Virus record (IMG/VR): IMGVR_UViG_3300031998_000073
Source of the DNA: an uncultured virus (IMG/VR IMGVR_UViG_3300031998_000073)
Taxonomy: Duplodnaviria > Heunggongvirae > Uroviricota > Caudoviricetes
Strand: one strand, 5' to 3'
DNA length: 64,000 nucleotides
Shown here: piece after piece, positions 3,165 through 36,037 of the stretch
Numbering within the stretch: the first letter of the stretch is position 1
Layout: every line of letters begins with the position of its first letter
Position numbers and translations under genes: made by a program
Notes under the pieces: model-generated
Databases searched by the model: none
What the model was told of the DNA's origin: nothing
The model's input: the letters and a program-made list of their open reading frames with translations, nothing else

Positions 3165-3195
3165 CAAAGATACAACTTTTATTTGAGATTTCAAA
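3165..3195 (-). promoter_or_regulatory. Bacteroidota promoter for cI
   Basis: TTTG-N19-TATCTTTG on the minus strand. Confidence 0.75.
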
Positions 3196-18950: not shown

Positions 18951-20402
18951 ATGACACAGATCATCGCACGGGGCAGCAAGGACGATGGTACCGTCAACCT
19001 GTATGCCCGGCTATACAAAAGACCCAGCCTGAACAAGACCGTCGCTCTCGGCATCACGCTGGCCGAAAACGACTGGAACTATATTGACAGAGTCCTGAAA
19101 GATGCTGAGGCAGCCCAGAAGAGCGGCAGCACCATCGCCATCAGGGATGCACTCGCCATGAAGCTGTGGACGGTGAAGACCGTACTTGACAGCATGATCA
19201 TTGCCGGGACGGCTACGGCTGGGACGGCCAAGGTGACCATCGACGAGATCCTGCGTGAGGATATTATAAAAGAGGTGGATCGCCAGCATGAGGAACTGGC
19301 AAGGAAGGAAGAGGAGTCGAAGCGCGTGACGCTGATGGACTTTATCGCCGACTTCATCCGGCAATGCGAGAGCGGGGAGAGACTGAAACGCAGGAGTGCC
19401 AGGATGATCACCGATGGCACTATCAGGAGCTATAAAGGCACGCTGTCGCAGCTGGAACACTACCAGAAAGCCCGTCACAGGATCCTTGACTTCGACGACA
19501 TGACGCTGGACTTCTATGATGACTGGCGCAGATTCTTCCTCGAGAAGAAGGACGCGAGGGGCAATCCCCGTCCGTATTCACCAAACACCATCGGGCGTCA
19601 CGTCAAGAACCTGAAAATATTCCTATACGCTGCCAAGGACATGAAGCTGACCACCACGACGGAGTTTGAGAGCAGCCGTTTTGTGGCAGACTCCCAGGAC
19701 GTGGAGAATGTCTATCTGACAGACGAGATGGTGCAGGAGATGTATATGACGGACTTTGAGGATGAAAAGACGATCAGACGCCTGATGAAGCTGGCACCCA
19801 ATGATGAGGAGCGGGCCATTATGAAGGATCAGCTGACCAGACGGACGCCTAAACTGCTGAACGAGGCAAAGGACATCTTTGTGGTGGGATGCCTGACCGG
19901 GCAGCGCGTCAGCGACTATAAGCGCATCAACGACACCATGTTCCGCACCCTGAGCGACGAGAACGACTATATCTATCTCCAGCAAGAAAAGACGGGGAAG
20001 TGGATATACATTCCCCTTGATCTCCGTATCAGGGCGATACTGGCCAAGTATGGCGGCAGGCTGCCTCACATCTACGACCAGGATCTGAATGAGCGCATTA
20101 AGGTGATTGGGCGTCTGCTTGGATGGCGTGAGAATGCAGGCATCAAGGAGCTGCACGGTACGATGGAGATCCCGACACAGAAGAAGTTCTACGAGTGCAT
20201 CAAGACGCACACGGCCAGACGGTCATTCGCCACCAACGCCTATAAGCGGAAGATCTCACTATCGTCTATCATGGTTATCACCGGACACAGTTCGGAGCGC
20301 ATGCTGAAGAAATACCTGAAGCTCGACGATGAGGAGAAGGCCATCATGGCAGCGGCAGAGTTCGCAAAGGCAAAGGAAGTCAAACTTAGAAAAGCAGAAT
20401 AA
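18951..20402 (+). CDS. int: tyrosine integrase
   Basis: TGQRVSD, QEKTG, HTARRSFATN, TGHSSE and Y catalytic motifs. Confidence 0.95.
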   Translation: MTQIIARGSKDDGTVNLYARLYKRPSLNKTVALGITLAENDWNYIDRVLKDAEAAQKSGSTIAIRDALAMKLWTVKTVLDSMIIAGTATAGTAKVTIDEILREDIIKEVDRQHEELARKEEESKRVTLMDFIADFIRQCESGERLKRRSARMITDGTIRSYKGTLSQLEHYQKARHRILDFDDMTLDFYDDWRRFFLEKKDARGNPRPYSPNTIGRHVKNLKIFLYAAKDMKLTTTTEFESSRFVADSQDVENVYLTDEMVQEMYMTDFEDEKTIRRLMKLAPNDEERAIMKDQLTRRTPKLLNEAKDIFVVGCLTGQRVSDYKRINDTMFRTLSDENDYIYLQQEKTGKWIYIPLDLRIRAILAKYGGRLPHIYDQDLNERIKVIGRLLGWRENAGIKELHGTMEIPTQKKFYECIKTHTARRSFATNAYKRKISLSSIMVITGHSSERMLKKYLKLDDEEKAIMAAAEFAKAKEVKLRKAE

Positions 20403-22477: not shown

Positions 22478-25400
22478 ATGGAAGACGGCAAAATATATGG
22501 CAGCGAAAACCGCCGCAAAATGTACGAGAACCTTTCAAACGACGGATTTGAACTCGGCACATTTGAGGATTTCAATCAGAACATGGATAACAAGGATACC
22601 CGCCAGGCTATATACAGGGCCGCTCAGGGTGCCGGTTGGGAACTTCCAGAATACGATCAGTTTGACCGCGATATGACCGTCAGACGGATGAAGATCGGCG
22701 GTGAGATGAAGGAGGTTGACCATTCCACGTATGATGACTTCATGAAAAGGCATCCTTCCGGTACGAATGTCAAGAAGGGCTTTGTCGGCCAGACACCACA
22801 GCAAGCGCCCCAGCAGCCCCAGCAACAGCCGAAGCCTGTTGCCGTCTCTTCTGCACCCAAGACCGTTGAGGCACCTGAGAGTCAGACGGTGGGCACCCCA
22901 TGGGGGTCAGAGGGCAGTGCTACAGGAAAGAGCGCAGCCTACAAGCCGTCTGCCCCTGGCCAGGTACGTGAGACGGGTGATCCCGGAGCATCACAGTTTG
23001 GCGTACCGTATAAGCCAGACACCGAGATGAACGCCGCAGAACGCGACGCAGTATATCGTCAGAATGACTTTGCCGTCAAGCAGCTCAGGCAGATGGAGCG
23101 TGAGGAAGAACGACGCAGCCAGCCTGTCACGGATACCGGCAATAAGGATGTCAACAGTCACATCATCAAGACACAGGGCGAATGGGAGGACGACCTGCAG
23201 AAGGGTGTTGAGCGTATCAGCAGCTCCGTAGTCGTGCCAGCCGTCGATAAGGCCGTTGCCGAGTTTGACAAGAAAGCCAGTGAGGTGTTTGAGGGTGGAA
23301 GGAAGGATAGCAACGCTACGGGCGGTCTGCCAACCGGCACAGCCGCAGGTGCAGGCATCTTCGGTAATATCCGTGAATCCAATCAGGCCAAGGATCCCGA
23401 CAAGATCCTCAACTATCTGAAACAGCAGATGGAGAGCGTCTATAAGGACGGTTCGTTTGTTGAGAAGATTGGCAAGGAGGCCGACAGGATGGGCATAGAC
23501 CGCAACGAGTACCTGGAGAAGATCATCAAGCCGCAGATCCAGTCGGATCTCGCCAGCCGTTTCGAGAGTTCCATGATTTCAAAGGAACTTCCCAAGAGCG
23601 GCCTGGAGTATGTCGTGAACGGTCTTAGCAACAGTATTGTCGGCATGGTGGCCGACACCTTCCTGAAGACCAAGAGCCAGCGCGCCTATAAGAATCAGGC
23701 TGAGGCTATGACGGAAGAAGGCCGTAACCCCAATTATAGCCCGAGCACGTCTGCCAGTCTTTCAAAGATTGGTGTAACCTTTGCTGCCGATGCTCCTTTC
23801 TTCGGAGTGACGGGAAGGGTAGGCGGTCAGGTGGCTAAGAAGTTTGCTGAGCGTCAGATCCAGAACATGATGGCGAAAGGTCTCAGTGAGGGCGCTGCCC
23901 GCAGCATTGTTGGCACTGCACTGGAGAATAGTGTAGGTGCCAGGATGAAGAACTATATCATGCAGCACGTCATCAGCAGTGGTATTACTATGGGTGGCTT
24001 CAACGCTTTGTCCGAGGGTGCCAGACAGGTGCGCGACGACGAGTTTGATCCCTTGAAGCTGGCAGGATCCACAGCCGAAGGCCTGGCCACCGGTGCTGCC
24101 TTCGGTCTTACCGGAGGTGTATCTCAGGCACTTTCCCAGCCTTTGAGCGGCTTTGCTAAGATTGGTGCCAAGGCTGCCGGCTTCGGTGCCGAGGCTGAGA
24201 CGATGTATGCCACTGAGGAACTGGCAAAGATGATCCAGGGCGAGGAAGGCTTTACCAATCCCTTTGAGGGTAGTGTTGAGTCCCTGATGAAGCTGGGAGT
24301 GATGAAACTGTCAAGCCCTGGCGGCCTCGTGAAGACCATTGGCGAGATTGCCCATCCTCTTAGGAGTAACCAGGCACAGCGTACTGGCGTCAACTTCACC
24401 AAGGAAGAAGAGGCTCTGATCCGTGACTCTGCCGAAGGTAAGTCGCTGCTGGAGGCCCTGAGCGGCATGCACCCGGATAAGGCCGTCAGTGAGGTCAACG
24501 GTAAGAAGAAACTGACTCCGGAAGGTGAGGAGATGCGCAGGAATCTGGCAGACTCCTATAACGCTTTCATGGAGAATCCCGAATATCCCGCCACTGTGAA
24601 GGAGAAGGTGGCTGCTGTCCTTGGTGGCGTGTATAAGCCAGGACTCGAGACCGGGGCCGATATCGTACAGGGTGATGATGGCAGCGTTACGCTGAAGACC
24701 CGTGACAAGGACGGCAACTGCATCCGTGAAATGAAATTTGACTCCTTCGAGGATGCTGACAAGTGGCGCAACGAGTTCAAGAGTCAGATGGAGCGCAACG
24801 ATGCCGTGAACATGTGGAACAATGCCAGCGACGAGACCCGCCAGAAGATTGTCGATGCCGTCAGGGATCAGATATCCGGTGAGAAGGAGGCCGCAGAAAT
24901 GCTTGAACGTGCCAACGGCATGAGACAGAGCCGCATGCAGCGAGAACTAGAGAAACTGAACAAGTTCAAAGAAGAGCATGAAGGCCGTGAACTGACCGAC
25001 GAGGAGGCCCGCGAATATATCCAGATGGTCATACGCGACGGCAGCGACGAGGTGTTTAGGGAGATGTACCAGACTATCCACGACAACGCTAACCCAAAGG
25101 ATGAGTACAATCCCAAGCGCAATTACGAGGACGGGCGAAAGGTGGATTCCATGGAGCGCCACTTTGCCCAAGCAGACGTACAGATTCAGGAGGAGAGGCT
25201 GGCGATGCTCGGCCAGGACTTTGCCAAAGAGGTGACCGGTGCCGCAGGCTATGCCGACGAGAAGATGGCAGAACTGGCCATGAGGAAAGACGTGACCAAG
25301 GAACAGCTGGAGGCAGCCAGGGACTACTATAACGCTACGGCCAAACTCGCCGGAGTAATGGAGGAGGCCTTGAAGGAAATCGACGAGCAGGTTGAGGCTG

Positions 25401-28400
25401 CCAATGCCCAGATCCGGCGAAACACCCATCCTGACAGCGGTGCTTTGATAGAGGCCAGCTACGACAACAAGGACTACTATGTGACAGCCGGGCACATACA
25501 GATAATGCCAGACGGCAAGATCGTCTCATCCGACGGAAGCGGTGTCGTGATCCTCCGCGACAGGAACACGGGCGAGATAGAGGTAATGAACCCGCAGAAC
25601 CTTACCGTGACAGCCATTTTGGATCCGAAACGCCTGATTGATGCCAACGAAAGCATGGAAGGCCTTCGCGGCCAGCTGGTGAAGCAGGCAGACGACTCCA
25701 TAGAGCTGCATCCAGATACGCCAGAGACTCCCCAGGAGATGGGTGAGACCTTTACGGGTTCCGACGGCAAGCTGTATATGGTTGCCGGTGAGCCTGACGG
25801 GACTGGTAACGTGGTATGGCTGAAGATAGGACTTAACGAAGAAGGAAACCCTGTTGGAGAGCCGCAGCCGCTTGATATCGACGAGTACCGCAAGGCCAAG
25901 AGCGACGAGATCGATGCGGCAGACATGCCTTCAACAGAAGAAACGCCTATAGATACTGTGTTAAGAGTGCCAGAGGTTGAACAACCCGCTTCTGATGGCC
26001 AGGCTGAGAATATGCGACGTGAAGACGAAGGTGAGGGAACAAGGGTTGAAGCGGTTCCCTCACCAGAACGCCCGGAGCATCCGCAATCCACTTCGTCCAG
26101 CATTCCAGTTGACGAGTCTGGCAAAAAGCTCTATGAGCAGGCAAAGCCCGAAGACACCCTTTCTGACCTTATTGAGAAGCGGGGTGAGGACAAGGCAGAG
26201 AAGATGGTTGGCCAGATGGTTGACAACATCTCCAGGCAGATCAGCGAACTGTCTAAGAAAGACATGTCAAAGGTCACTGACATGAACGATATTGATGCCT
26301 ATGAGACTGAAATATCCGATCTGCACAAGAAATTGGACTACTGGAAAGGCATTTCTGACAAAATAAAGACCGAAAAGGCAAAAAAGTCATGGAATAATTT
26401 GGTAAATCCAAAAGAAATTCGTAACTTTGCAACAGATCCTGAAGGTCAGCAGAGATGGGTTGACGAACACATCGACGAGATTGTAGATTCTTACATACGT
26501 ACTCATGGCAATCTGCTCGACCCCGATGAGATTAGAAATGCTTTTGCCGGTATTGGTTACAATGGCAAAAACGTTACGGAATACAGAGAACAAGAGGGGC
26601 GGGTGGTAGCCGCCATTTACGAAAGAATGCTTAGCGAAGCCGTTGCTAACGGCAACACAAGCATAACACTGCTGACAGGCGCCGGAAAGAGTACGGCGAC
26701 GAGACAGATGGACCTCAGCGGACGCGGAGTAGTCTATGATTCCGCATTCAACAAGTTCAAGAAGCTCAACGAGGCCATTGAGGCTGCAAAGGCTGCCGGA
26801 ATGAAGGATATACAGGTAATAGCAGTCTATAACGACGCCACAACCTCCTTCTCCAACAGTGTAGAGCGAGGACTCAGGACAGGCAGGTTCATGTCGCTTG
26901 ACTACTTTGTCAACGGCGCCTTCCTCGAGAACAGCGGAAAGATATCACAGCTGAGGCAAGCCTATCCCGATGTGGAGATCATTGCCTTTGACAACAGCGG
27001 CAACAAGGCGTCAGAACGCCCGGATGGTGGCCGCGTGACGCCGGAAGAGGCAGAGGGATGGGACTACACGCTGAACGACTCGAAGTTAAACGAACTATTA
27101 GATATATTTGAAAATGGCATTAACGAAGGAAGATTTACAGAGGATCAAATTGCCTCTATCGGACGAGGACTACGTAATGTTACACGACGAATCCCCGATC
27201 TCCGAGTGGAGACTGAGCAAAGAGTTTCCAGAATTGCACAGGGCATATTTCCACAAGATGTGCCAGATCTTCGACCAGGTGTTCCCAGGGGAACAGGTGG
27301 GAGCGGACGAGGTGGACTGGTACCCGCCGCAGACGGAGCAGTTCAAGGATCATCCGGAGGACGTCCGGCTGAGGGAGAACAGGGAGCGCCTGGCCATGGC
27401 ACTGAGCCAGCGGCCCCAGCTGATGGACCGTCTGGAGCAGGCGGAGAAGGCCAGCCAGTCATAGACCAGAAACAGAAGAAGAAGCTTTTTAAGACCGCTG
27501 AGGCCAATACCGGCAAAACATTCACCTTTACCAGCAGCTCCGGTGTACGGTCAGAACTTACCCTGCAGCGCATAGACCATAACGGCGATGCCGTCGTTAC
27601 GCGTCAGGACTACGACGCCCAGGGCAATCCCGTAGGCGAGGCGCGTGAGGAGCGCTATGCAGCCGTTAAGGTAGGAGAGGCCATCGATAACGGCACATGG
27701 AAGAAAAACCTCAACAGCGAGGAACATCTCCGTGAAGTCATGAGAAACAAGCCCGGAGCCGCTAACGTCATCAGCGTGTTCAGTGATGGCGAGATCGACA
27801 GACTGTGGAAAACATACGAATCAGGAGACAAGGAGGCCTTTGAAAACCTTTACGACGAATATCGTAAAGACCATTTTGAAGACCTTATCGCACTCAGTCA
27901 GCGTGAGCGCGTCAGCTCTGCAGAGCGCACGTTAGGATACGGAACGCGTGAGGAAAAGATCCGCAGGCTCAGGAAGATATACCAGGGCAATGACGATGCA
28001 GTGCTTGCACTCAGCGACGAGTCCATGGAGCCGCAGTCGGTGGAGGAGTACATTACCAGTTTTCTCGGTGATGTACCAAAGCCCGGTGAAGGATCCATTG
28101 CCTGGGACAGTTACGGAGAGGGTGACGCCCGTGTCATAGGTCTTCGGGACGAGACAGGTTTTGGCAGCAGGGGATTCGGGGGTGACACGAAGGGGTTCAA
28201 TCCGTGGCTGGCTGCAAAGGGACAAGGTGTAAGTCTTGCAAAGTTTTCAGAGTCGCTCCATGAACAGTTGCCGGAAGGTCTAAAGGAACAATATACGGAT
28301 CAGGACATCCGTAACATTCTGCTTGACATCCTGACAAATGCTGAGAAGCCCACTGATATTCCAAACAGCATCCTTTATAACCGTATGCGGCTTGCAGAAG

Positions 28401-31400
28401 AGGCTATGCGCCGGGAAGAACAGGAATGGATAGACAGCGGCATGCGCTATCAGAAGGTGTCTCCAGACGAGAAGAGTTTTGCCGGACGGCTGGAACGTGC
28501 CAAACAGCAGACGAACACAGAGCCTACAGAAGCGCAAAAGGAGGCTGGTAACTATAAGAAGGGTCATGTCTCTTTCGGTGGATACGACTTTGTGGTGGAA
28601 AACCCGGAGGGAAGCATGCGTCGCGGAAAGGATGCCGACGGAAAGGCCTGGGAGCAGAAGATGCACAACACCTACGGCTATATCCTCGGCAAACGTGGTA
28701 AGGACGGAGACCATCTGGATATGTTCATCAATGATGCCCAGGATCTCGACAACTGGAATGGTACGGTCTATGTCGTTGACCAGGTGGATCCCAAGACGGG
28801 CAAGCTGGACGAGCATAAAATCCTGTTTGGATTTGACTCGGAGGCAGAGGCCCGCGATGCCTACCTTTCCAACTATGAGGATGGCTGGCAGGGACTTGGA
28901 AGGATTACCGGTGTTGACAAGGACACCTTCGACAAGTGGCTGGATTCATCAGACCGCAAGATTAAGGAGTTTTCAGAGCATTCAATCATTAAGAATGCCT
29001 TACAGAGGGCAGAGTCCGAGGCTAAAGAGCCAGAGTCAAAGGTTGCTACACCGTCGGAACAAGACCGTGCCATCCGTGACGCCGTGGTGGAACATCTCCG
29101 TAGCAGGGGTATCGAGGTGAGTGACGACTGGCAGTTAGGCCAGAAGATCCTTGATGACTATAACAGTCGCTTCTCTGTAGGTGAGGATACCGAAGGTGAT
29201 ATCAAGGCCCAGAAATCTGACCAACCAAACTTCTTCAGGACAGCCAACGGTCAGGCTTATGGCTACACCTACCAGGGAAAAATCTATATTGATCCGCGTA
29301 TTGCCACGTCCGAGACACCTGTCCATGAGTACGGTCACCTGTGGGCAGAGATGAAGCGCCAGACTGCTCCCGAGGAATGGGGCAATATCAAACAGGTGAT
29401 GCTGACTGACAAGCTGGTGCAGCCGATCATCGACAAAGTAAAGGCCGACTATCCTGAGCTTGCCAAGGAGGGTAGGGAGGATGACTTCGTAGAAGAGATC
29501 ATTACCCAATTCTCAGGCAAGCGGGGTTCAGAACGCCTCCGTGAGATTGCCGACGAGATAGCAGCCGAGAACGGTGGCGTATTCGGCAAGGCTGAGGCCG
29601 TCACAGCCATGCAGCGCCTGAAGAATATCCTCAACCGCTTCTGGGAGGGCATTGCAAAGATGATGGGATGGAAGTACACCAACGCCAATCAGATAGCTGA
29701 CCGTATCATGGCCGACATGCTCAACGACGTTAATCCCCGTGAGCGTATGAAGGGGGCTGACAACACTGTCAAGGGCCAGCAAGAGAGACGTACCCTGATG
29801 GGTGTACACAATATTTCTGAAGAGAAGCTGAAGAAGGCCATCAAGCAGGGCGGTCTGGCTAATCCGTCGCTGGCCGTCGTCAATACCGACATAGGCATAC
29901 ACACCGACTATGGCGAGATCTCCTTGATACCGAGGTCAACGCTGATAGATGCGATGACCGGACGCAATGCTGGCACCTATGCAGGCGACGCATGGTCGCC
30001 GACGTATCCAAGCGTCAGCAGGGTACTGACAAAGCAGGGTGACAAGCACCGTATGGCCATTGCCAAGGAGTTCTCAGGAGGCGACAGCGAGACGGAGCGC
30101 CACCTTGGAGGCGTGATCTACGACTACATAGAGGGTAACGGCGACCGCCTGCACTGGCTCTTCCTGAAGCAGAAGGGCCTGGATCCCGAAATCAAGCCCG
30201 AGCGCACTTCCCATACTCATGAAGAGTTTGAGGAGATCCAGAAAATCTTCGGTGAGGGAACCGTCACACTCCCCTCCCATGGCCGCACCAAGGAGCAGGA
30301 CAATGCCCTGCTGGACCTGATGACCAGGGACTACGAAAGGGATCTGCGGGAGAATGCCAAGCATATCAAGGATGAGGCAAAGCGTGAGGCCTACATCAAG
30401 ATTGCACTTGAACGCAAGCTTAACAGCCTTGTGGATAAGGACGGCAACCTGTACTTTGCGCCTGCCGACACCTATGTCTATGAGAACTGGCGAGACGAGA
30501 AGAAGCGTAAGGAGCCGAAACCAGACTGGTATATGACCGACAACGAGGCTAACTACCGTGTGGCCAAGGAAGGACTGGCCGAGGAGTACGAGCAGTGGAA
30601 GGAACAGCTCTTCGACGACGGCGACATCAAGGAGCAGCTGTTTGCCGGATGGACGCCGGACGGCAACAAGCGCTATGTGGCCAACACCGTCCAGAACGCC
30701 AGCCGCCTGATGAATAAGGAGTCAGACACCAACGCCTACGACCAGAATGGCCTGAATGCTACCCGTTCTTCATTGCTGAAGCGCATGAAGTCGCTTTCTG
30801 ACATCCGCAAGGCCAAACACCTGCTGCAGGGCAAGGAGGCTTATGACAGTACTCAGAAGGAAATGTCGGACGAGCTGTTTGACATTATCAGTCAGATATC
30901 AGACATGCAGAAGATCTCCGACAACCGATACATGAACATTGACTATGCGGAAGCACGGCTGCAGGAGGCCATCGCCAAGCGCGATCCCATCGGCCATTTG
31001 AATAAGGAATACGGCTACGACATTGCCAGGGACAGCGAGCTGGCATCCCAGATCATGAACTTCATCGAGAAGGCCGGAAGCCTGCCAGTGAAGTATTTCG
31101 AGACAAAGTTTAAGCGTCCCGTTGGACTGGAGGAGTTTGCCGTGGCCGTCGTGCCTGAGAAGACTTCGCCGGAGGTCATTGAGGCCCTGAAGAAGGCTGG
31201 CCTTGACGTTCGCACCTATGATAATACGGGCACGGAAGAACAGAAGAATGCCAACCGTACGGCTGCCACCATGGATGCCGTCACAGGCCGGGACGATATC
31301 AGGTTCCAGAAGAAGACAGACCGCTACCAACTTTCAGAAACAGAAAAAGACGCCGAGGGCAACAGTTTCTATGAGAAGGACGGATCCGTAGACTTGTGGA

Positions 31401-34400
31401 CTCTTCCTAACCTGTTTGCCAGGGCACGAAGACAGGCAGCGCCAATCAGGCTGACAGGGCGGAATATGAAACACATCCTAAATGAACACCGCAAGGAAAT
31501 CGGCAGTGAAAAGGATGTGCTTGCATTCCTTGATGACATATTCAGTAATGCCCCTGTACTTCGCAGGGCAAGAGGCCGTGGTATGTTTGTAGTCGTAGAA
31601 CAGGACAATACAGACAGGGCCGCTATCATCAAGCTGATGCCAAGCAAGACTGGCGACTATTACAACGTGGAAACTGCCGGATACTACCGAAAGAACAAGT
31701 GGAAGGATTATGAAGATGTGATTGCTGATCTGCGCGAACCAGACCAATCAGATGCCGCTGCCGATGCCTCTAAGCCCCAGACTCCCGATGAAAACGGCGG
31801 GGAGCCGATTAACGCTGAGGCGCAAACTTCATCTTCTGAGGGCAAAGATACTAAAAAAATCAATACGAACCAAGAAAATTCGCAAGAAAATGCATCCGGA
31901 GGGCCAAAATTTCAGCGCACGGGCAGCCCTGAGCCGGAGATGACACCAGAGGAACGCCAGTACTGGAACAAGTGGGACAAGGATATGCGGAAGTGGAAGG
32001 AGCGCAACGCCCTGCCCGCTGAGGCCACGGGACCAGGAGAAAAACCGAAGTTCCGACAGGGCGAGAGTGCCCTCGACTTTGCAAAGCGCCTTGTCGCCCA
32101 CAACAGGGAGAAGGCACTCTGGCAGACAGCCCCGAAACTGGAGGACTACCACCAGAAGCGTGAAGATAAAGATATACTGGAGGCAGCACGAGAGAACGAG
32201 AGACGCTATCCTGACAGCCCCAGTGCCAGGATGCGCCGGATAGCCGCAGAGTTCCAGCAGATACGCCATGCCATGAGCCAGCAGAAAGCCTACGACAAGG
32301 CGACGGTGAAGGCAGTGACCGACTTTGCCCAGGACTTCATGAGACAGGGCTTCGGCGATAACCTGGGCCGTGGCGAGATGGAGCGCATGCTTTCCAGTGT
32401 AAAGAATGCTACCGGCGCAAAGGACATACGCCAGTCGGTTGACAATATCATGAACATCCTGATCGACAACCATCTCCGCAACCTCGACCAGCAGGTGCAG
32501 AAGCTCTCATCCACCAAGGAACTGAGCAAGACAGCACAGGGCGTTGAGAAGCAGGGCAAGCTGGAACTAAAGGGCCAGCGTATGATCCAGGCATTCCGCA
32601 AGGCGCGTGAGGGCAGGATGGATGCCGACAAGCTGCGTGAGGAGATCAGCAAGGTGGCCGAGAAGATGGCACGAAACGACGAGGAGGCCCCGATGTGGGA
32701 ACAGGAATTCGAGGGACTCCAGATAGCCTTGCAGTATCAGGAGAACATTGAGGCCAGCCGCGACGAGTATGCAGACCTTGACCGTGAATACAAGGAGGCC
32801 GTCAGTGACTATAAGACCAGCGGACGCTCGTATAAGGATCAGCAGCAACTGTTGGAAAGCCTTGACCAGGCAATGATGGAGAACAAGATCGAGCGTATCG
32901 GCATGTTCGGCGATATCATCGGACGCCTTCAGGGCAACATCTCTGAGAGTATGCAGGGAGCCAAGGAGTTCGTGGAGCGTGAGAAGGAGCGGGTGAAGCA
33001 TATCCAGCAGATCGCCAACTTTGACCTGGCCGGGAAGCCAGCCGACGCCCTGCGCGAGAAGACAAAGGGCAAACCAGCCAACTTCTTCCTGCAGCCGCTT
33101 GGAACCTTCGAACAGATGCTACGCCAGTTTGGAAGCCGCAACGCCAATGGTGAGGGTTATCTCTATGACTACTTTATGCGTAACTGGATGGACGCAACCG
33201 ACAAGGCATTTCTCAATGAGCAGAAGGCCAAAGAGGAACTGGATGCCAAGGCCCGTGAGGTATTCGGCAGCAAGGTGAAGCGGTGGAGCGACCTCTACGA
33301 CATCGCCAGGAGCCTGCCAACATTGGAGGTTGAGGTGCTGGATGGCGAGAACTCCAGGACATTCACGATGAATCAGGGTAATCTCCTGTATATCTATATG
33401 GCCGACAAGATGACCGACGGACGGATGAAGCTCCGCAAGATTGGCATTGACGAGGAGACTGTAGATAAGATCAAGGATTTCCTCGATCCTCGCCTGGTGC
33501 AGCTGGGCGACTGGCTCCAGGATGAATACCTTGTGAAGAAGCGTATTGAATACAACAAGGTGCATGAGCGGATGTTTGGTGCCCCGATGGCTGCCATTGA
33601 CCACTATTTCCCGCTGAAGGTGCTGGGCGATGCCCGTTACCAGGAGCAGGATGTGAATGTGCCTGACAGCGAGACGCTGCCATCTACGATCACCGGCAAC
33701 ATCATCAAGCGCCGTAAGAATGCTTTGCCGCTGGATATACTGCATACCGACGCCCTGAGCCTGGCCATTGAGCATGTTGAGGACATGGAGCACTGGGCGG
33801 CGCAGTCTGAGTGGAACAAGGATATCAACACGCTGCTGAGCTATACCACCTTCCGAAACAAGGTGAAGAACATGGATACCGTCTATGGAAGCGGTGACGC
33901 CTTGTGGAATGCCTTCAAGGACACGGCAAAGATGGCCGCCGGCACTTATGACTCCAGCGCCAAGTCGGGCCATGTTGACAAGGCTATCTCAAATATCGCC
34001 AAGGGTGTGACGGCTGCAAAGATCAATTTCCGTGCCTATACGGCATTCAAGCAGATCCTGTCCGCTCCAGCCTTCCTCCATGACGTGAGGCTGGATGACT
34101 TTGTTAAGAACTCCGTCAATCCCTACGGATCGTGGAAGTGGGCCATGGAGAATATGCCCGTGTTCCAGAAACGCTGGAAGAGCCGCCAGGCGGGCGACAC
34201 CCGGCTGATGGACGATCCTACGGACTGGAAGATGTGGAAGACCAATGTCGTGCAGATGGCAACGCGCCTCGGCATGAGTCCCAACGCCCTCGTTGACGGG
34301 ATTACCTGTGCCGTGGGCGCACGATCCATCTATGAGAGCCGATACAGGAAGTATAAAAAGATCGGCGCCAGCGACGAGGTAGCCCGCAAGCGCGCACTTC

Positions 34401-36037
34401 AGGATGCCGAGATCGGCTACAACCTGACGCAGCAGTCAAGCGAGGGAGCGTTTACCAGCGCTATCCAGAAAGACCGTACCGTAGCCGCCAATATGCTGAG
34501 CGTGTTCCGTAACTCATCTATGTCGTACACCCGGCAGTGGTACGACGCCTACCGTAACCTTAAGAAGCGCACACAGAAGGGCTATAAGGAAGACTCCATC
34601 AAGTTCATGACACGTCAGATTCAGGAACAGTTCGGCCTCGATGATGATCAGGCAAAGAAAGCGGCAGAAATGGAGTATGCCCGCGAGGGACGCCGCGACG
34701 TGGCCCGTATGCTGAATATGATGTTTGGCGTGACTGTAGCATGGAATCTGGGCGCCTCGCTGCCATACTTGCTGCTGGGTGATGACGGTAACACCAAGAA
34801 GGAGATGATGACCGATGCACTCCTGAAAGGACTGATCGCAGGGCCTACAGAAGGCTTTGCTGCAGGAAATATCTGGAGTGATCTGATCGGAAGGACCTTA
34901 GCCAGCGAGGAAACGCGACGGGCTGTCAGAAACGAAGGGTGGGGAGCCGGCATCGATGCAGCTCTGAAGCAGGGAGGCGACTACGAGGTGAACCCGCTGC
35001 CATTGATGGCCGACATTCAAAGCATGATCAATAAGATGGGCTACGACAAGTTTGCCGCTGCCCAGGATGTCTTCAATATCTGTATACAGAGTGCCGTAGG
35101 CGTGAACCCGCAGACATTCACAGATATGTGGAATGCTGTGATGGATTATGGCAACCCTTCATGGATGCCGTTCACTGACACTGCCAAAGGTAATGACGAC
35201 CTGTCTAATTCCAAGGAGATTGCCCTGTTTATCATGCGAGTTCTGAATGCGCCTACAAGTTCATGGCGCAACAAATACATTGACGAGCTTGGTATGAGTG
35301 CCGAGGATGCCAAGAAACTGCCTTACGGCGAGATGGCAAAGCGTTACGCCAACTACAAACATTGGAAGGATGCGCCTATCATGGGATGGCTACGAGGTGA
35401 AGAGGGCAGGGTTGCAAAGATCGAGAAAATACAGAAGCAGTTTGACAAGGCTGTTGAGGAACGTATGCAGCGCCTTACTGATCAGGAGCTGATGCATAAC
35501 GTAGCCCGTTCTGAAAGCCCTGAAGAAAAGCGCAAGTATGCCAAGCTCATTGCACAGAGGCTTGGCCTGACTCCTGGACAAGATTCTAAAAAGCCGAAAG
35601 ATGATGAAGTCTATCAGAAAATTTACCAGCAGCGTATGTTGTACGAAGATATTGTAGAAGACGAGACGCTGGCCGCAAAATACAAGGATATTGAAAAGGC
35701 TTACAAGGAGAAGTATGAAGAGGCTTCGCGCAAGAGTGCTATTGATGAGCAGGAATTTGTTAAGGCTAACAAGGACTGGAAAAAACGCATCGATGACGCT
35801 AAAGGTGAAGTCAAAAAACGCCTTGACTGGATCCGTGACGGAAAGTATGACTCAGAGAACGGAAGGCCAGGTAAACATAAGAATCCCGAAAACAATCCCA
35901 AACTGTTGTATGAGGGCAAGAAACAGCTCGAAACCACTGACGATAAAGAGACTTATGAGGATATCATGAATAATATACGCAAGTGGCGAAAAGAGGCTTT
36001 GGAATTGCTTCTAAGGGCTGAGGCTGAAAGCAAGTGA
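22478..36037 (+). CDS. large polyvalent protein (4519 aa, probably virion-ejected): zeta-like P-loop, InPase, zincin, PBECR-like RNase and helical C-terminal domains
   Basis: GAGKST (~26680); PTEAQKEAGNYKKGH..YGY..DGDHLD (~28520-28900); HEYGH (~29325); KHILNEH..YYNVETAG (~31470-31680). Confidence 0.85.
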   Translation: MEDGKIYGSENRRKMYENLSNDGFELGTFEDFNQNMDNKDTRQAIYRAAQGAGWELPEYDQFDRDMTVRRMKIGGEMKEVDHSTYDDFMKRHPSGTNVKKGFVGQTPQQAPQQPQQQPKPVAVSSAPKTVEAPESQTVGTPWGSEGSATGKSAAYKPSAPGQVRETGDPGASQFGVPYKPDTEMNAAERDAVYRQNDFAVKQLRQMEREEERRSQPVTDTGNKDVNSHIIKTQGEWEDDLQKGVERISSSVVVPAVDKAVAEFDKKASEVFEGGRKDSNATGGLPTGTAAGAGIFGNIRESNQAKDPDKILNYLKQQMESVYKDGSFVEKIGKEADRMGIDRNEYLEKIIKPQIQSDLASRFESSMISKELPKSGLEYVVNGLSNSIVGMVADTFLKTKSQRAYKNQAEAMTEEGRNPNYSPSTSASLSKIGVTFAADAPFFGVTGRVGGQVAKKFAERQIQNMMAKGLSEGAARSIVGTALENSVGARMKNYIMQHVISSGITMGGFNALSEGARQVRDDEFDPLKLAGSTAEGLATGAAFGLTGGVSQALSQPLSGFAKIGAKAAGFGAEAETMYATEELAKMIQGEEGFTNPFEGSVESLMKLGVMKLSSPGGLVKTIGEIAHPLRSNQAQRTGVNFTKEEEALIRDSAEGKSLLEALSGMHPDKAVSEVNGKKKLTPEGEEMRRNLADSYNAFMENPEYPATVKEKVAAVLGGVYKPGLETGADIVQGDDGSVTLKTRDKDGNCIREMKFDSFEDADKWRNEFKSQMERNDAVNMWNNASDETRQKIVDAVRDQISGEKEAAEMLERANGMRQSRMQRELEKLNKFKEEHEGRELTDEEAREYIQMVIRDGSDEVFREMYQTIHDNANPKDEYNPKRNYEDGRKVDSMERHFAQADVQIQEERLAMLGQDFAKEVTGAAGYADEKMAELAMRKDVTKEQLEAARDYYNATAKLAGVMEEALKEIDEQVEAANAQIRRNTHPDSGALIEASYDNKDYYVTAGHIQIMPDGKIVSSDGSGVVILRDRNTGEIEVMNPQNLTVTAILDPKRLIDANESMEGLRGQLVKQADDSIELHPDTPETPQEMGETFTGSDGKLYMVAGEPDGTGNVVWLKIGLNEEGNPVGEPQPLDIDEYRKAKSDEIDAADMPSTEETPIDTVLRVPEVEQPASDGQAENMRREDEGEGTRVEAVPSPERPEHPQSTSSSIPVDESGKKLYEQAKPEDTLSDLIEKRGEDKAEKMVGQMVDNISRQISELSKKDMSKVTDMNDIDAYETEISDLHKKLDYWKGISDKIKTEKAKKSWNNLVNPKEIRNFATDPEGQQRWVDEHIDEIVDSYIRTHGNLLDPDEIRNAFAGIGYNGKNVTEYREQEGRVVAAIYERMLSEAVANGNTSITLLTGAGKSTATRQMDLSGRGVVYDSAFNKFKKLNEAIEAAKAAGMKDIQVIAVYNDATTSFSNSVERGLRTGRFMSLDYFVNGAFLENSGKISQLRQAYPDVEIIAFDNSGNKASERPDGGRVTPEEAEGWDYTLNDSKLNELLDIFENGINEGRFTEDQIASIGRGLRNVTRRIPDLRVETEQRVSRIAQGIFPQDVPDLRPGVPRGTGGSGRGGLVPAADGAVQGSSGGRPAEGEQGAPGHGTEPAAPADGPSGAGGEGQPVIDQKQKKKLFKTAEANTGKTFTFTSSSGVRSELTLQRIDHNGDAVVTRQDYDAQGNPVGEAREERYAAVKVGEAIDNGTWKKNLNSEEHLREVMRNKPGAANVISVFSDGEIDRLWKTYESGDKEAFENLYDEYRKDHFEDLIALSQRERVSSAERTLGYGTREEKIRRLRKIYQGNDDAVLALSDESMEPQSVEEYITSFLGDVPKPGEGSIAWDSYGEGDARVIGLRDETGFGSRGFGGDTKGFNPWLAAKGQGVSLAKFSESLHEQLPEGLKEQYTDQDIRNILLDILTNAEKPTDIPNSILYNRMRLAEEAMRREEQEWIDSGMRYQKVSPDEKSFAGRLERAKQQTNTEPTEAQKEAGNYKKGHVSFGGYDFVVENPEGSMRRGKDADGKAWEQKMHNTYGYILGKRGKDGDHLDMFINDAQDLDNWNGTVYVVDQVDPKTGKLDEHKILFGFDSEAEARDAYLSNYEDGWQGLGRITGVDKDTFDKWLDSSDRKIKEFSEHSIIKNALQRAESEAKEPESKVATPSEQDRAIRDAVVEHLRSRGIEVSDDWQLGQKILDDYNSRFSVGEDTEGDIKAQKSDQPNFFRTANGQAYGYTYQGKIYIDPRIATSETPVHEYGHLWAEMKRQTAPEEWGNIKQVMLTDKLVQPIIDKVKADYPELAKEGREDDFVEEIITQFSGKRGSERLREIADEIAAENGGVFGKAEAVTAMQRLKNILNRFWEGIAKMMGWKYTNANQIADRIMADMLNDVNPRERMKGADNTVKGQQERRTLMGVHNISEEKLKKAIKQGGLANPSLAVVNTDIGIHTDYGEISLIPRSTLIDAMTGRNAGTYAGDAWSPTYPSVSRVLTKQGDKHRMAIAKEFSGGDSETERHLGGVIYDYIEGNGDRLHWLFLKQKGLDPEIKPERTSHTHEEFEEIQKIFGEGTVTLPSHGRTKEQDNALLDLMTRDYERDLRENAKHIKDEAKREAYIKIALERKLNSLVDKDGNLYFAPADTYVYENWRDEKKRKEPKPDWYMTDNEANYRVAKEGLAEEYEQWKEQLFDDGDIKEQLFAGWTPDGNKRYVANTVQNASRLMNKESDTNAYDQNGLNATRSSLLKRMKSLSDIRKAKHLLQGKEAYDSTQKEMSDELFDIISQISDMQKISDNRYMNIDYAEARLQEAIAKRDPIGHLNKEYGYDIARDSELASQIMNFIEKAGSLPVKYFETKFKRPVGLEEFAVAVVPEKTSPEVIEALKKAGLDVRTYDNTGTEEQKNANRTAATMDAVTGRDDIRFQKKTDRYQLSETEKDAEGNSFYEKDGSVDLWTLPNLFARARRQAAPIRLTGRNMKHILNEHRKEIGSEKDVLAFLDDIFSNAPVLRRARGRGMFVVVEQDNTDRAAIIKLMPSKTGDYYNVETAGYYRKNKWKDYEDVIADLREPDQSDAAADASKPQTPDENGGEPINAEAQTSSSEGKDTKKINTNQENSQENASGGPKFQRTGSPEPEMTPEERQYWNKWDKDMRKWKERNALPAEATGPGEKPKFRQGESALDFAKRLVAHNREKALWQTAPKLEDYHQKREDKDILEAARENERRYPDSPSARMRRIAAEFQQIRHAMSQQKAYDKATVKAVTDFAQDFMRQGFGDNLGRGEMERMLSSVKNATGAKDIRQSVDNIMNILIDNHLRNLDQQVQKLSSTKELSKTAQGVEKQGKLELKGQRMIQAFRKAREGRMDADKLREEISKVAEKMARNDEEAPMWEQEFEGLQIALQYQENIEASRDEYADLDREYKEAVSDYKTSGRSYKDQQQLLESLDQAMMENKIERIGMFGDIIGRLQGNISESMQGAKEFVEREKERVKHIQQIANFDLAGKPADALREKTKGKPANFFLQPLGTFEQMLRQFGSRNANGEGYLYDYFMRNWMDATDKAFLNEQKAKEELDAKAREVFGSKVKRWSDLYDIARSLPTLEVEVLDGENSRTFTMNQGNLLYIYMADKMTDGRMKLRKIGIDEETVDKIKDFLDPRLVQLGDWLQDEYLVKKRIEYNKVHERMFGAPMAAIDHYFPLKVLGDARYQEQDVNVPDSETLPSTITGNIIKRRKNALPLDILHTDALSLAIEHVEDMEHWAAQSEWNKDINTLLSYTTFRNKVKNMDTVYGSGDALWNAFKDTAKMAAGTYDSSAKSGHVDKAISNIAKGVTAAKINFRAYTAFKQILSAPAFLHDVRLDDFVKNSVNPYGSWKWAMENMPVFQKRWKSRQAGDTRLMDDPTDWKMWKTNVVQMATRLGMSPNALVDGITCAVGARSIYESRYRKYKKIGASDEVARKRALQDAEIGYNLTQQSSEGAFTSAIQKDRTVAANMLSVFRNSSMSYTRQWYDAYRNLKKRTQKGYKEDSIKFMTRQIQEQFGLDDDQAKKAAEMEYAREGRRDVARMLNMMFGVTVAWNLGASLPYLLLGDDGNTKKEMMTDALLKGLIAGPTEGFAAGNIWSDLIGRTLASEETRRAVRNEGWGAGIDAALKQGGDYEVNPLPLMADIQSMINKMGYDKFAAAQDVFNICIQSAVGVNPQTFTDMWNAVMDYGNPSWMPFTDTAKGNDDLSNSKEIALFIMRVLNAPTSSWRNKYIDELGMSAEDAKKLPYGEMAKRYANYKHWKDAPIMGWLRGEEGRVAKIEKIQKQFDKAVEERMQRLTDQELMHNVARSESPEEKRKYAKLIAQRLGLTPGQDSKKPKDDEVYQKIYQQRMLYEDIVEDETLAAKYKDIEKAYKEKYEEASRKSAIDEQEFVKANKDWKKRIDDAKGEVKKRLDWIRDGKYDSENGRPGKHKNPENNPKLLYEGKKQLETTDDKETYEDIMNNIRKWRKEALELLLRAEAESK
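26398..26429 (+). promoter_or_regulatory. internal sense promoter inside the giant gene
   Basis: Canonical TTTG-N20-TAACTTTG in an AT-rich patch. Confidence 0.65.
27114..27464 (+). CDS. overprinted +1-frame gene (116 aa), candidate antitoxin/immunity protein
   Basis: AT-rich initiation region, GC3-biased codons and globular-looking sequence, while the host frame here reads as a G/R/P-rich linker. Confidence 0.7.
   Translation: MALTKEDLQRIKLPLSDEDYVMLHDESPISEWRLSKEFPELHRAYFHKMCQIFDQVFPGEQVGADEVDWYPPQTEQFKDHPEDVRLRENRERLAMALSQRPQLMDRLEQAEKASQS
31712..31836 (-). ncRNA. candidate structured antisense RNA embedded after the RNase domain
   Basis: Nested pairings GAAGATG/CATCTTC, TCTGCGC/GCGCAAA, GCCTC/GAGGC and CTCCC/GGGAG, just downstream of a minus-strand promoter. 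Confidence 0.5.
31843..31874 (-). promoter_or_regulatory. internal antisense promoter inside the giant gene
   Basis: CTTG-N20-TATCTTTG on the minus strand, same spacing as the promoters at 36980 and 39019. Confidence 0.65.

Follow-up and report, generated by a model that had tools for sequence, protein, structure and literature searches.

A probable +1-frame gene and a promoter-like element accompany a zeta-toxin-like kinase module inside the giant polyvalent gene of a Bacteroidota prophage

The 64,000-nucleotide stretch of DNA recorded in IMG/VR as IMGVR_UViG_3300031998_000073, from an uncultured virus of the Caudoviricetes (hereafter, the window), contains a giant gene for a polyvalent, DarB-like protein. 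Within this gene lies what is, on balance, a three-part cassette: a Bacteroidota-type promoter-like site, a zeta-toxin-like kinase module read in the main frame, and a small, separately started gene read in the +1 frame over the end of that module. Comparison with related DNA shows that the promoter-like site, the module and the nested gene recur as a unit in relatives, and we consider the nested open reading frame (ORF) very probably to be a real, translated gene. A sequence-only reading of the window had proposed a toxin-antitoxin-like pair absorbed into an ejected polyprotein, with the partner still made separately and protecting the producer cell or lysogen; the alignments described below partly support this interpretation, in its anatomy.

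We took the DNA of relatives from IMG/VR, from JGI metagenomes and from GTDB genomes, and after merging duplicates we were left with eight distinct loci: the window, L003 (=L013/L020), L004 (=L011/L012/L021), L014 (=L015), L005 (=L016), L017, L032 and L007 (=L022). In the window, the nested ORF runs for 116 codons from an ATG at 27114 to a stop codon ending at 27464, with a TTG two codons upstream, at 27108. The sequence-only reading had asked whether stop codons are avoided in this frame among homologues, and the +1 frame proved to be open from a conserved ATG in all eight loci, with the ATG lying 1-4 codons after a +1-frame stop. The nested products are 58-204 aa long and share a start of the form L-T-K-E-D-L-x-x-I-K-L-P-L-S-x-x-D-Y. 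Main-frame identity to the window is 68-69% in L003 and L004, 51% in L014, 47% in L007, 36% in L005 and 33% in L017; the main-frame residue pair lying over the ATG varies (N-G, Y-G, N-D, Y-V, D-E) and always spells xAT-Gxx. A further relative, L006 (23% identity), was searched and the nested ORF was not found in it, and L018 is a broken fragment that ends short of the nested region. Searches of GenBank phages gave no match to the DNA or to the proteins P0002 and P0067, IMG/VR scans with P0038 and P0034 gave none, and among 401 Bacteroidales genomes sampled around G002, G002 alone gave a match, whether the query was the kinase module or the small protein.

The same observations could in principle arise with no gene in the +1 frame at all, from a purine-rich, T-poor composition together with a conservation of the bases that is due to the main frame. 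Other frames are often open across GC-rich linkers, and the giant gene itself holds a longer +1 ORF that is plainly meaningless. This ORF (213 aa, 28479-29120, + strand), which lies over the InPase domain and has an R/S/T-rich translation, served as a negative control; its identity in L020 is 48%, compared with 65% for the main frame, and we read it as a chance ORF. To the nested ORF, however, this account fits poorly. Synonymous reshuffles that kept the main protein and the local codon usage left the +1 frame of the window open in 1.7% of 5000 cases, and under this null the probability of an open frame was 0.017 for the window, 0.0014 for L003, 0.034 for L004, 0.031 for L014, 0.0034 for L005, 0.0006 for L017, 0.035 for L032 and 0.27 for L007; in seven of the eight loci it therefore lies between 0.0006 and 0.035.

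The substitution pattern points the same way. In a 19-codon core compared over the 28 pairs of the eight loci, differences amounted to 0.44/0.26/0.22 on main-frame positions 1/2/3, which is 0.26/0.22/0.44 when the same bases are counted in the +1 frame. The third +1 position varies most and the second least, and this is the signature of +1-frame coding. Main-frame third positions are correspondingly suppressed: 0-4 of the first 25 overlap codons differ there (0-16%) versus 111-164 of 245-248 codons in the upstream domain (45-66%; Fisher p 3.7e-8 to 2.3e-4 in the five pairs tested). Core identity is 0.88-1.0 in the +1 frame versus 0.60-0.96 for the main reading, and in the linker part both frames score about the same, unlike the control domain, where off-frame identities (0.27-0.52) trail the main frame (0.55-0.81) by about 0.3. 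The per-frame comparison of selection that the earlier reading had called for thus came out in favor of the nested frame, and two marks of a nested gene were found, an alternative frame open from a conserved start and selection acting in that frame. Support is firmest in the first third of the ORF and at a W-Y-P-P-x-T-E motif, whose bases (27318-27355) are among the few islands at least 80% alike in a 19-kb contig from metagenome run X8.

Some observations count against the ORF being a gene. Over the linker part, the substitution pattern of close pairs is mixed (0.28-0.42/0.23-0.27/0.28-0.34 on positions 1/2/3); the predicted product has a low Atlas recognition score (1739, where 91 of 100 known-family proteins reach 2300) and Atlas returned no usable match for it; and the DNA comes from eight distinct loci of which three, the window, L003 and L004, are close kin. 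Set against the reshuffle nulls, the variable +1 third position, the high +1 identity, a confident structural model and the protein family described below, these points leave the absence of a gene very improbable. Judged by the substitutions, the +1 frame is shown to carry the dominant coding signal over these bases.

The composition of the region agrees with this. GC content by codon position is 0.61/0.32/0.77 in the +1 frame, bearing out an earlier remark that its codons are GC3-biased, compared with 0.46-0.58/0.36-0.39/0.43-0.85 for the window's other genes; read in the main frame, the bases of the nested ORF give 0.77/0.61/0.32. The profile is therefore gene-like in the +1 frame and un-gene-like in the main frame. 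The AT-rich initiation region that had been noted before the ATG is real as well: the preceding 40 nt have a GC content of 0.28, and folding of the start region is weaker than that of shuffled versions of it (z +1.30), 187 of 200 of which fold equally well or better. We considered RNA structure as the cause of the silent-site conservation and rejected it given this z score and the absence of any Rfam family at threshold; a weak match to DUF2693 RNA scored 19.4 bits versus a threshold of 81.3.

A separate start is not the only way in which the open frame could be translated. Within a translated gene, some 46 codons are shared by the two frames, and programmed frameshifting is a known source of alternative C-termini in phages; if ribosomes shifted from the main frame here, the outcome would be a shortened protein ending in the kinase module plus the +1 domain. 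We regard this as highly improbable, as the ATG is kept in all eight loci while the main-frame residues beneath it change, the +1 stops just upstream leave almost no room for a shift, nearly all members of the small-protein family begin at that methionine, the AT-rich, unstructured region resembles a start site, and no slippery run was seen.

The two frames share their bases unequally. The first ~46 nested codons overlap the tail helices of the kinase module, which are well modeled in the main frame (predicted local distance difference test (pLDDT) score ~82), and these codons are truly dual-coding; the remaining nested codons overlap a linker. The sequence-only reading had taken this G/R/P-rich main-frame stretch for the off-frame reading of a real gene, and the details match: it is rich in G, R, P and A, its pLDDT is below 50 over residues 293-328 of the alignment described below as A1 (the last 36 modeled), and its main-frame GC1/2/3 over 27251-27463 is 0.89/0.70/0.34. 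The linker would then be a shadow of the small gene, whose E/Q-rich codons appear as a G/R/P/A-rich stretch in the main frame, and longer small genes would give longer linkers. Linker length differs among homologues. The long G/S/P/A linkers of the giant homologues P0004, P0005, P0007 and P0008 may likewise be off-frame readings of small-gene extensions.

The nested products define a family of their own. Searching 1.84 billion representatives with a profile built from seven +1 products (A2) gathered 34 clusters at E <= 1e-3, of which 18 reach <= 1e-10 and 6 reach <= 1e-30, and nearly all 34 members begin at the same methionine, as M-x-L-T-K-E-D-L. Seven members (P0027, P0028, P0029, P0032, P0033, P0037 and P0038) carry two tandem copies, and the second copies keep the motif where no kinase tail can underlie them, which again argues against conservation imposed by the main frame. 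One member, P0060, is identical to the nested ORF of L032 and hence itself nested, and an entry in the protein database therefore does not establish a stand-alone gene. Among 8000 candidates scored, no protein of 358-2000 aa carried the small domain in frame, which is weak evidence. The AlphaFold2 (AF2) model of the window product, made with 32 sequences (A3), has six helices, a pLDDT of 91.6 and a predicted template modeling score of 0.77, in keeping with the globular look first ascribed to this sequence. A ribbon-helix-helix reading, suggested by R-I-K-L-P-L followed by a helix, was dropped, as no profile or fold match supported it.

We made several side observations on this family. In P0027, P0029 and P0030, which are among the longer members, there is a tryptophan-rich C-terminal motif (W-L-E-W-P-x-D-Q-x-W-P-P-x-W-L), and the 204-aa nested ORF of L003 ends in a different, E/Q-rich extension. 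In P0084 (308 aa, on a 3-kb contig), a segment resembling Pol-beta-type nucleotidyltransferases is followed in the same frame by the full small domain, which continues beyond the point where it usually stops; the fusion may be genuine, or the assembly may be chimeric or contain a frameshift. Finally, gp60 of Bacteroides phage BS-TP4 (L036 5959-6297, + strand; 112 aa), encoded between repressor/PsbP-domain genes and the integrase gene, resembles the C-terminal domain of P0065 (40% identity, E 3e-13), which gives a faint hint of a possible lysogeny-linked role.

The second part of the cassette is the promoter-like element, which lies within the 4519-aa ORF upstream of the P-loop domain, where the sequence-only reading had placed a perfect Bacteroidota promoter. 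It reads TTTGGTAAATCCAAAAGAAATTCGTAACTTTG and has the boxes and spacing of the Bacteroidota primary-sigma consensus (-33 TTTG, -7 TAnnTTTG, 19-21 nt apart), as quoted in PMC7366714. The pattern TTTG-N19-21-TAnnTTTG occurs twice on the two strands of the window, versus a mean of 0.21 in shuffles, of which 3 of 100 reach two matches, and the element is the sole two-box match on the + strand of the giant gene. The other perfect match in the window (3165-3195, - strand; TTTG-N19-TATCTTTG) lies 174 nt upstream of the ATG of a minus-strand ORF, 2026-2991. On its own the -7 box is enriched in the window (46 occurrences versus 23.1 +/- 5.0, with none of 100 shuffles reaching 46), and it stands 21-28 nt before several gene starts, for example 18951, 40738, 51613(-) and 40484(-). 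This enrichment and placement indicate that the phage uses this promoter type.

The element also recurs in relatives. Six of the seven distinct polyvalent loci have a perfect match, placed 716-809 nt ahead of the nested ATG, with four spacer versions and two reading registers of the giant ORF among them. The 32-nt element is identical in the window, L003 and L004, where nearby third positions differ at about half of the codons. Perfect matches in L005, L017 and L032 have their own spacers (N20, N19 and N19), and the distance from the match to the nested ATG is 771 nt in L005, 809 nt in L017, 737 nt in L032 and 716 nt in the window. In L014, the -7 box TAATTTTG is retained and CTTG stands at -33. 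The -7 box is translated as R-N-F-A in the window group and as V-[TS]-L-Q, one register off, in L005, L017 and L032. Conservation of the element is thus independent of frame, and because it is kept across spacers and reading registers the constraint appears to act on the DNA.

TTTG-N20-TAACTTTG could instead be no promoter, a coding coincidence or a module-boundary sequence such as a recombination joint in domain shuffling, which we rate as rather unlikely. The element stands exactly at the 5' edge of the module and the -7 box invariably encodes V-[TS]-L-Q in three loci, as a coding or boundary sequence might, but nothing beyond the boxes and their spacing is conserved, genuine genes of the window have the same -7 box ahead of their starts, and no further two-box match was found on either strand in the ~28.6 kb of the six polyvalent loci. 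Look-alikes in other metagenome contigs are another point against a mere coding sequence. Many short contigs from the gut metagenome runs X3, X5 and X8 match just 26391-26434 (5-7 differences), as pieces of 36-41 nt flanked on both sides by A-rich, unlike sequence, as in intergenic DNA. This is the pattern that look-alike intergenic promoters would give, and a family of such promoters may be widespread in rumen Bacteroidota or their phages.

What comes downstream of the element is less easily reconciled with a promoter of a simple operon. There is no usable start codon at the usual 20-30 nt after it; an ATG at 26455, 26 nt past the element, opens a 2-codon ORF (read by eye); and the leader implied from the element to the nested ATG is ~680 nt. 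In Bacteroides thetaiotaomicron, according to PMC7366714, internal transcription start sites make up 21% of all start sites and 13.5% of mRNAs have leaders longer than 100 nt. A second promoter at 27103-27110 (TATATTTG) was considered and rejected: it is kept in three close relatives only and ends 3 nt from the nested ATG, too near to serve it unless the mRNA is leaderless. Weighing the conservation of the boxes against the missing start codon, we think it quite probable that the internal promoter is real and working.

The third part is the kinase module. A search with the region recovered 24 homologous giant proteins out of 1513 candidates scored; of the resulting 25 rows, 16 were aligned, leaving aside P0014-16 and P0018 (near-copies of P0013) and P0022-26 (partial cover), and 12 of the 16 make up alignment A1. 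The window segment is borderline by itself, scoring 22.3-23.5 bits against Pfam Zeta_toxin (PF06414) depending on the piece scanned, with the cut-off at 22.3. The same Pfam family matches 12 of 12 members of A1 at E <= 0.01 (best 1.3e-9), and a precomputed PF06414 assignment exists for three homologues. At the sequence level, A1 gave no match in the PDB. The AF2 model of A1 has a pLDDT of 78 and is ordered through residue 292 (aa 1591), and its ten best PDB matches in Foldseek are all of zeta type (N. gonorrhoeae zeta_1, PezT and streptococcal zeta chains), led by 6epi_F (E 2.4e-6, probability 1.00, TMq 0.58). The model thus predicts a zeta-toxin fold for the P-loop domain, in line with the likeness pointed out from sequence.

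The Walker A motif of this module is unusual in the window. It reads LLTGAGKST, where 15 of 15 aligned homologues have LLTG[AV]GGAGKS, and the model pLDDT falls to 69 at this block. A 7.5-kb contig from run X3, which differs from the window by 151 letters over ~1.8 kb, has the 9 missing bases, as GGAGGAGCT inserted behind 26683.

Is the small protein a partner of this kinase? The physical tie of a kinase tail with the small ORF recurs in unrelated settings, and this is the reason for reading the small protein as the cognate partner of the module. The overlap is found in seven polyvalent loci and in one stand-alone chromosomal locus, L007, in a Prevotella metagenome-assembled genome (MAG), where a zeta-like gene has the small ORF overlapping its 3' end and the kinase ORF stops ~49 codons past the nested ATG. 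Such a linked pair in unrelated contexts is one of the features of type II toxin-antitoxin systems. The search for stand-alone zeta genes paired with a small gene, which the earlier reading had suggested, was successful in this one case; the nested ORF is absent from the other seven stand-alone zeta-like loci, L008-L010 (44-45% identity) and L026-L029 (37-38%). The zeta-like gene of L007 (L031 3689-4732, - strand) has a housekeeping-type, not phage, neighborhood: a pyridine nucleotide-disulphide oxidoreductase, DUF4251, a glutathione peroxidase and a sodium:solute symporter.

We propose the following course of events. The pair would stem from a two-gene unit like that of L007, through which the giant ORF later read. 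With a transcript from the internal promoter, production of the small protein would not depend on that of the giant, virion-borne one, for instance in a lysogen, and the small protein, as immunity protein, antitoxin or regulator of the kinase module, would shield the producing or lysogenic cell. The partner role is the most likely single reading, and we hold it tentatively.

A number of observations weigh against it, above all in the form of an antitoxin that protects the lysogen, which is weakened by the lack of an antitoxin fold, the long leader, the Walker A deletion and the fusion of the small domain to a PLxRFG/DarB-type domain. The window copy of the kinase does not fit the canonical GxxxxGK[ST], which its relatives do fit, and with three residues missing the kinase of this prophage may be enzymatically dead while the nested gene is intact. 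The small protein has no family in Pfam, PHROG, NCBIfam or PADLOC, with a weak Paratox match below threshold (E 0.079). Its fold has no close match by Foldseek in the PDB (best E 4) or BFVD (best E 2.3) or by VIA-align over 48,161 chains (best Z 3.6), and epsilon and PezA are absent among the Foldseek and VIA matches and in the Pfam search, so nothing ties the small protein to known antitoxins. Finally, the N-terminus of the L007 kinase looks lipoprotein-like by eye (a basic start, a hydrophobic run and LSGC), which is a poor fit to a cytoplasmic toxin; an exported zeta-like kinase would be odd.

These observations lend themselves to a different account, in which the nested gene is real and its product is no kinase antidote: it might instead assist the giant protein, as an adaptor in packaging or assembly or as a chaperone encoded in an overlapping frame, or be a separate anti-defence or lysogeny factor that simply accompanies the module. 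The small domain stands, often doubled, at the N-terminus of 250-450-aa proteins, and P0033 and P0065 have two copies in frame with the PLxRFG/DarB-type polyvalent domain, a fusion that permits non-immunity roles; P0033 is an NCBI-annotated hypothetical protein from a Muribaculaceae MAG, found on contigs as long as 238 kb. In its C-terminal part, P0065 matches the BS-TP4 gene between repressor and integrase, the model matches no known antitoxin fold, and the small ORF has stayed intact in the window beside a shortened Walker A. On the other hand, a general packaging helper is not expected to stay tied to one domain, and the overlap with the zeta-like tail recurs in very different settings, including a chromosomal gene outside any phage. 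We consider a role other than antidote somewhat unlikely.

A wider reading, which we put forward with considerable doubt, is that some linkers of polyvalent proteins are shadows of separately expressed genes, here of an immunity protein against an injected zeta-like kinase, expressed from a buried promoter. A lysogen or producing cell would then be protected from the virion-borne toxin domain of its own and of related phages, and the arrangement would amount to an entire toxin-immunity operon engulfed by a larger reading frame.

The carrier of the cassette is a Bacteroidota (rumen) prophage; the sequencing runs that contain the stretch are labeled bovine gut metagenome. Around the giant gene lie an integrase gene (18951-20402), an Ant-like regulator, a terminase-like gene and a portal gene. 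The giant protein has Pfam matches to InPase (aa 2018-2155) and PBECR5 (aa 2435-2532) and a PHROG match to the DarB-like antirestriction family, and on these grounds it is a polyvalent protein in the sense of Iyer et al. 2017 (PMC5512222). With the zeta-like module and the prophage context, it combines many conflict-type domains in one very large phage protein, and zeta-toxin-like kinase domains are mentioned among polyvalent proteins in that paper. The coordinates of the features are collected in Table 1.

Table 1. Features of the cassette and of the giant gene that carries it, in window coordinates
Feature	Coordinates	Strand	Description
Giant polyvalent (DarB-like) protein gene	22478..36037	+	4519 aa; host frame of the cassette
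Zeta-toxin-like P-loop kinase module (predicted)	26375..27250	+	main frame, aa 1300-1591; Pfam and AF2/Foldseek
Bacteroidota-type promoter-like element	26398..26429	+	-33 TTTG (26398-26401), 20-nt spacer, -7 TAACTTTG (26422-26429)
Shortened Walker A (T-G-A-G-K-S-T)	26675..26695	+	9 nt (3 aa) shorter than in relatives
Nested gene (very probable)	27114..27464	+	+1 frame, 116 aa, predicted all-helical, new family
Main-frame G/R/P/A-rich disordered linker	27251..27470	+	apparent off-frame reading of the nested gene

The arrangement matters for annotation, as a linker in a giant polyvalent protein can hide a real gene. Gene callers forbid long overlaps on the same strand, and such genes go unannotated. 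A low-complexity spacer receives a concrete explanation here, as the other reading of a real gene, and the same check can be transferred to other giant proteins of phages and conjugative elements. If the small protein were indeed the antidote of the zeta-like domain, this would explain how a phage virion can carry a toxin domain while the phage's own host stays unharmed, and how lysogens might resist related phages. The unit of promoter, kinase domain and small gene is short and testable in Bacteroidales.

Taken singly, nested genes in phages, pairs with a zeta toxin and polyvalent proteins are all known. In the literature searched (subscription journals lay outside its coverage), we found no conserved nested gene or promoter-like site in a polyvalent gene, and no name for the small-protein family. 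With the polyvalent proteins of PMC5512222, the gene shares its giant, multidomain phage product with InPase, PBECR5 and DarB-like matches; a linker-nested gene and a promoter inside the ORF lie outside the picture drawn in that paper, in which a term search gave no occurrence of "overlapping", "frameshift" or "internal promoter".

The resemblance to zeta/PezT with epsilon/PezA lies in the zeta fold and Pfam match of the main-frame module and in a small helical, acidic-looking protein encoded in physical union with the kinase. Zeta/PezT systems are type II systems whose toxins are UDP-sugar kinases and whose antitoxin gene usually lies upstream, whereas the partner here is downstream, out of frame and inside the toxin gene, has no detectable likeness to epsilon or PezA, and accompanies a kinase that is one domain of a 4519-aa protein, with a shortened P-loop in the window. 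The nesting itself recalls lambda Rz1, which lies inside Rz in the +1 frame: in both cases a complete small +1 gene sits in a larger phage gene, with whose product its own is expected to cooperate. Here, however, the gene that hosts the nested one is polyvalent and 13.6 kb long, the shared bases are those of a folded domain tail and a linker, the nested family also occurs in tandem or fused elsewhere, and a promoter-like site travels with the unit. Polymorphic toxin/immunity cassettes such as CdiA-CT/CdiI and Rhs also place a toxin domain on a very large delivered protein with a small gene at its 3' side, and their modules likewise move as units; the cassette described here differs from them in that the small gene overlaps out of frame and the toxin domain is internal rather than C-terminal.

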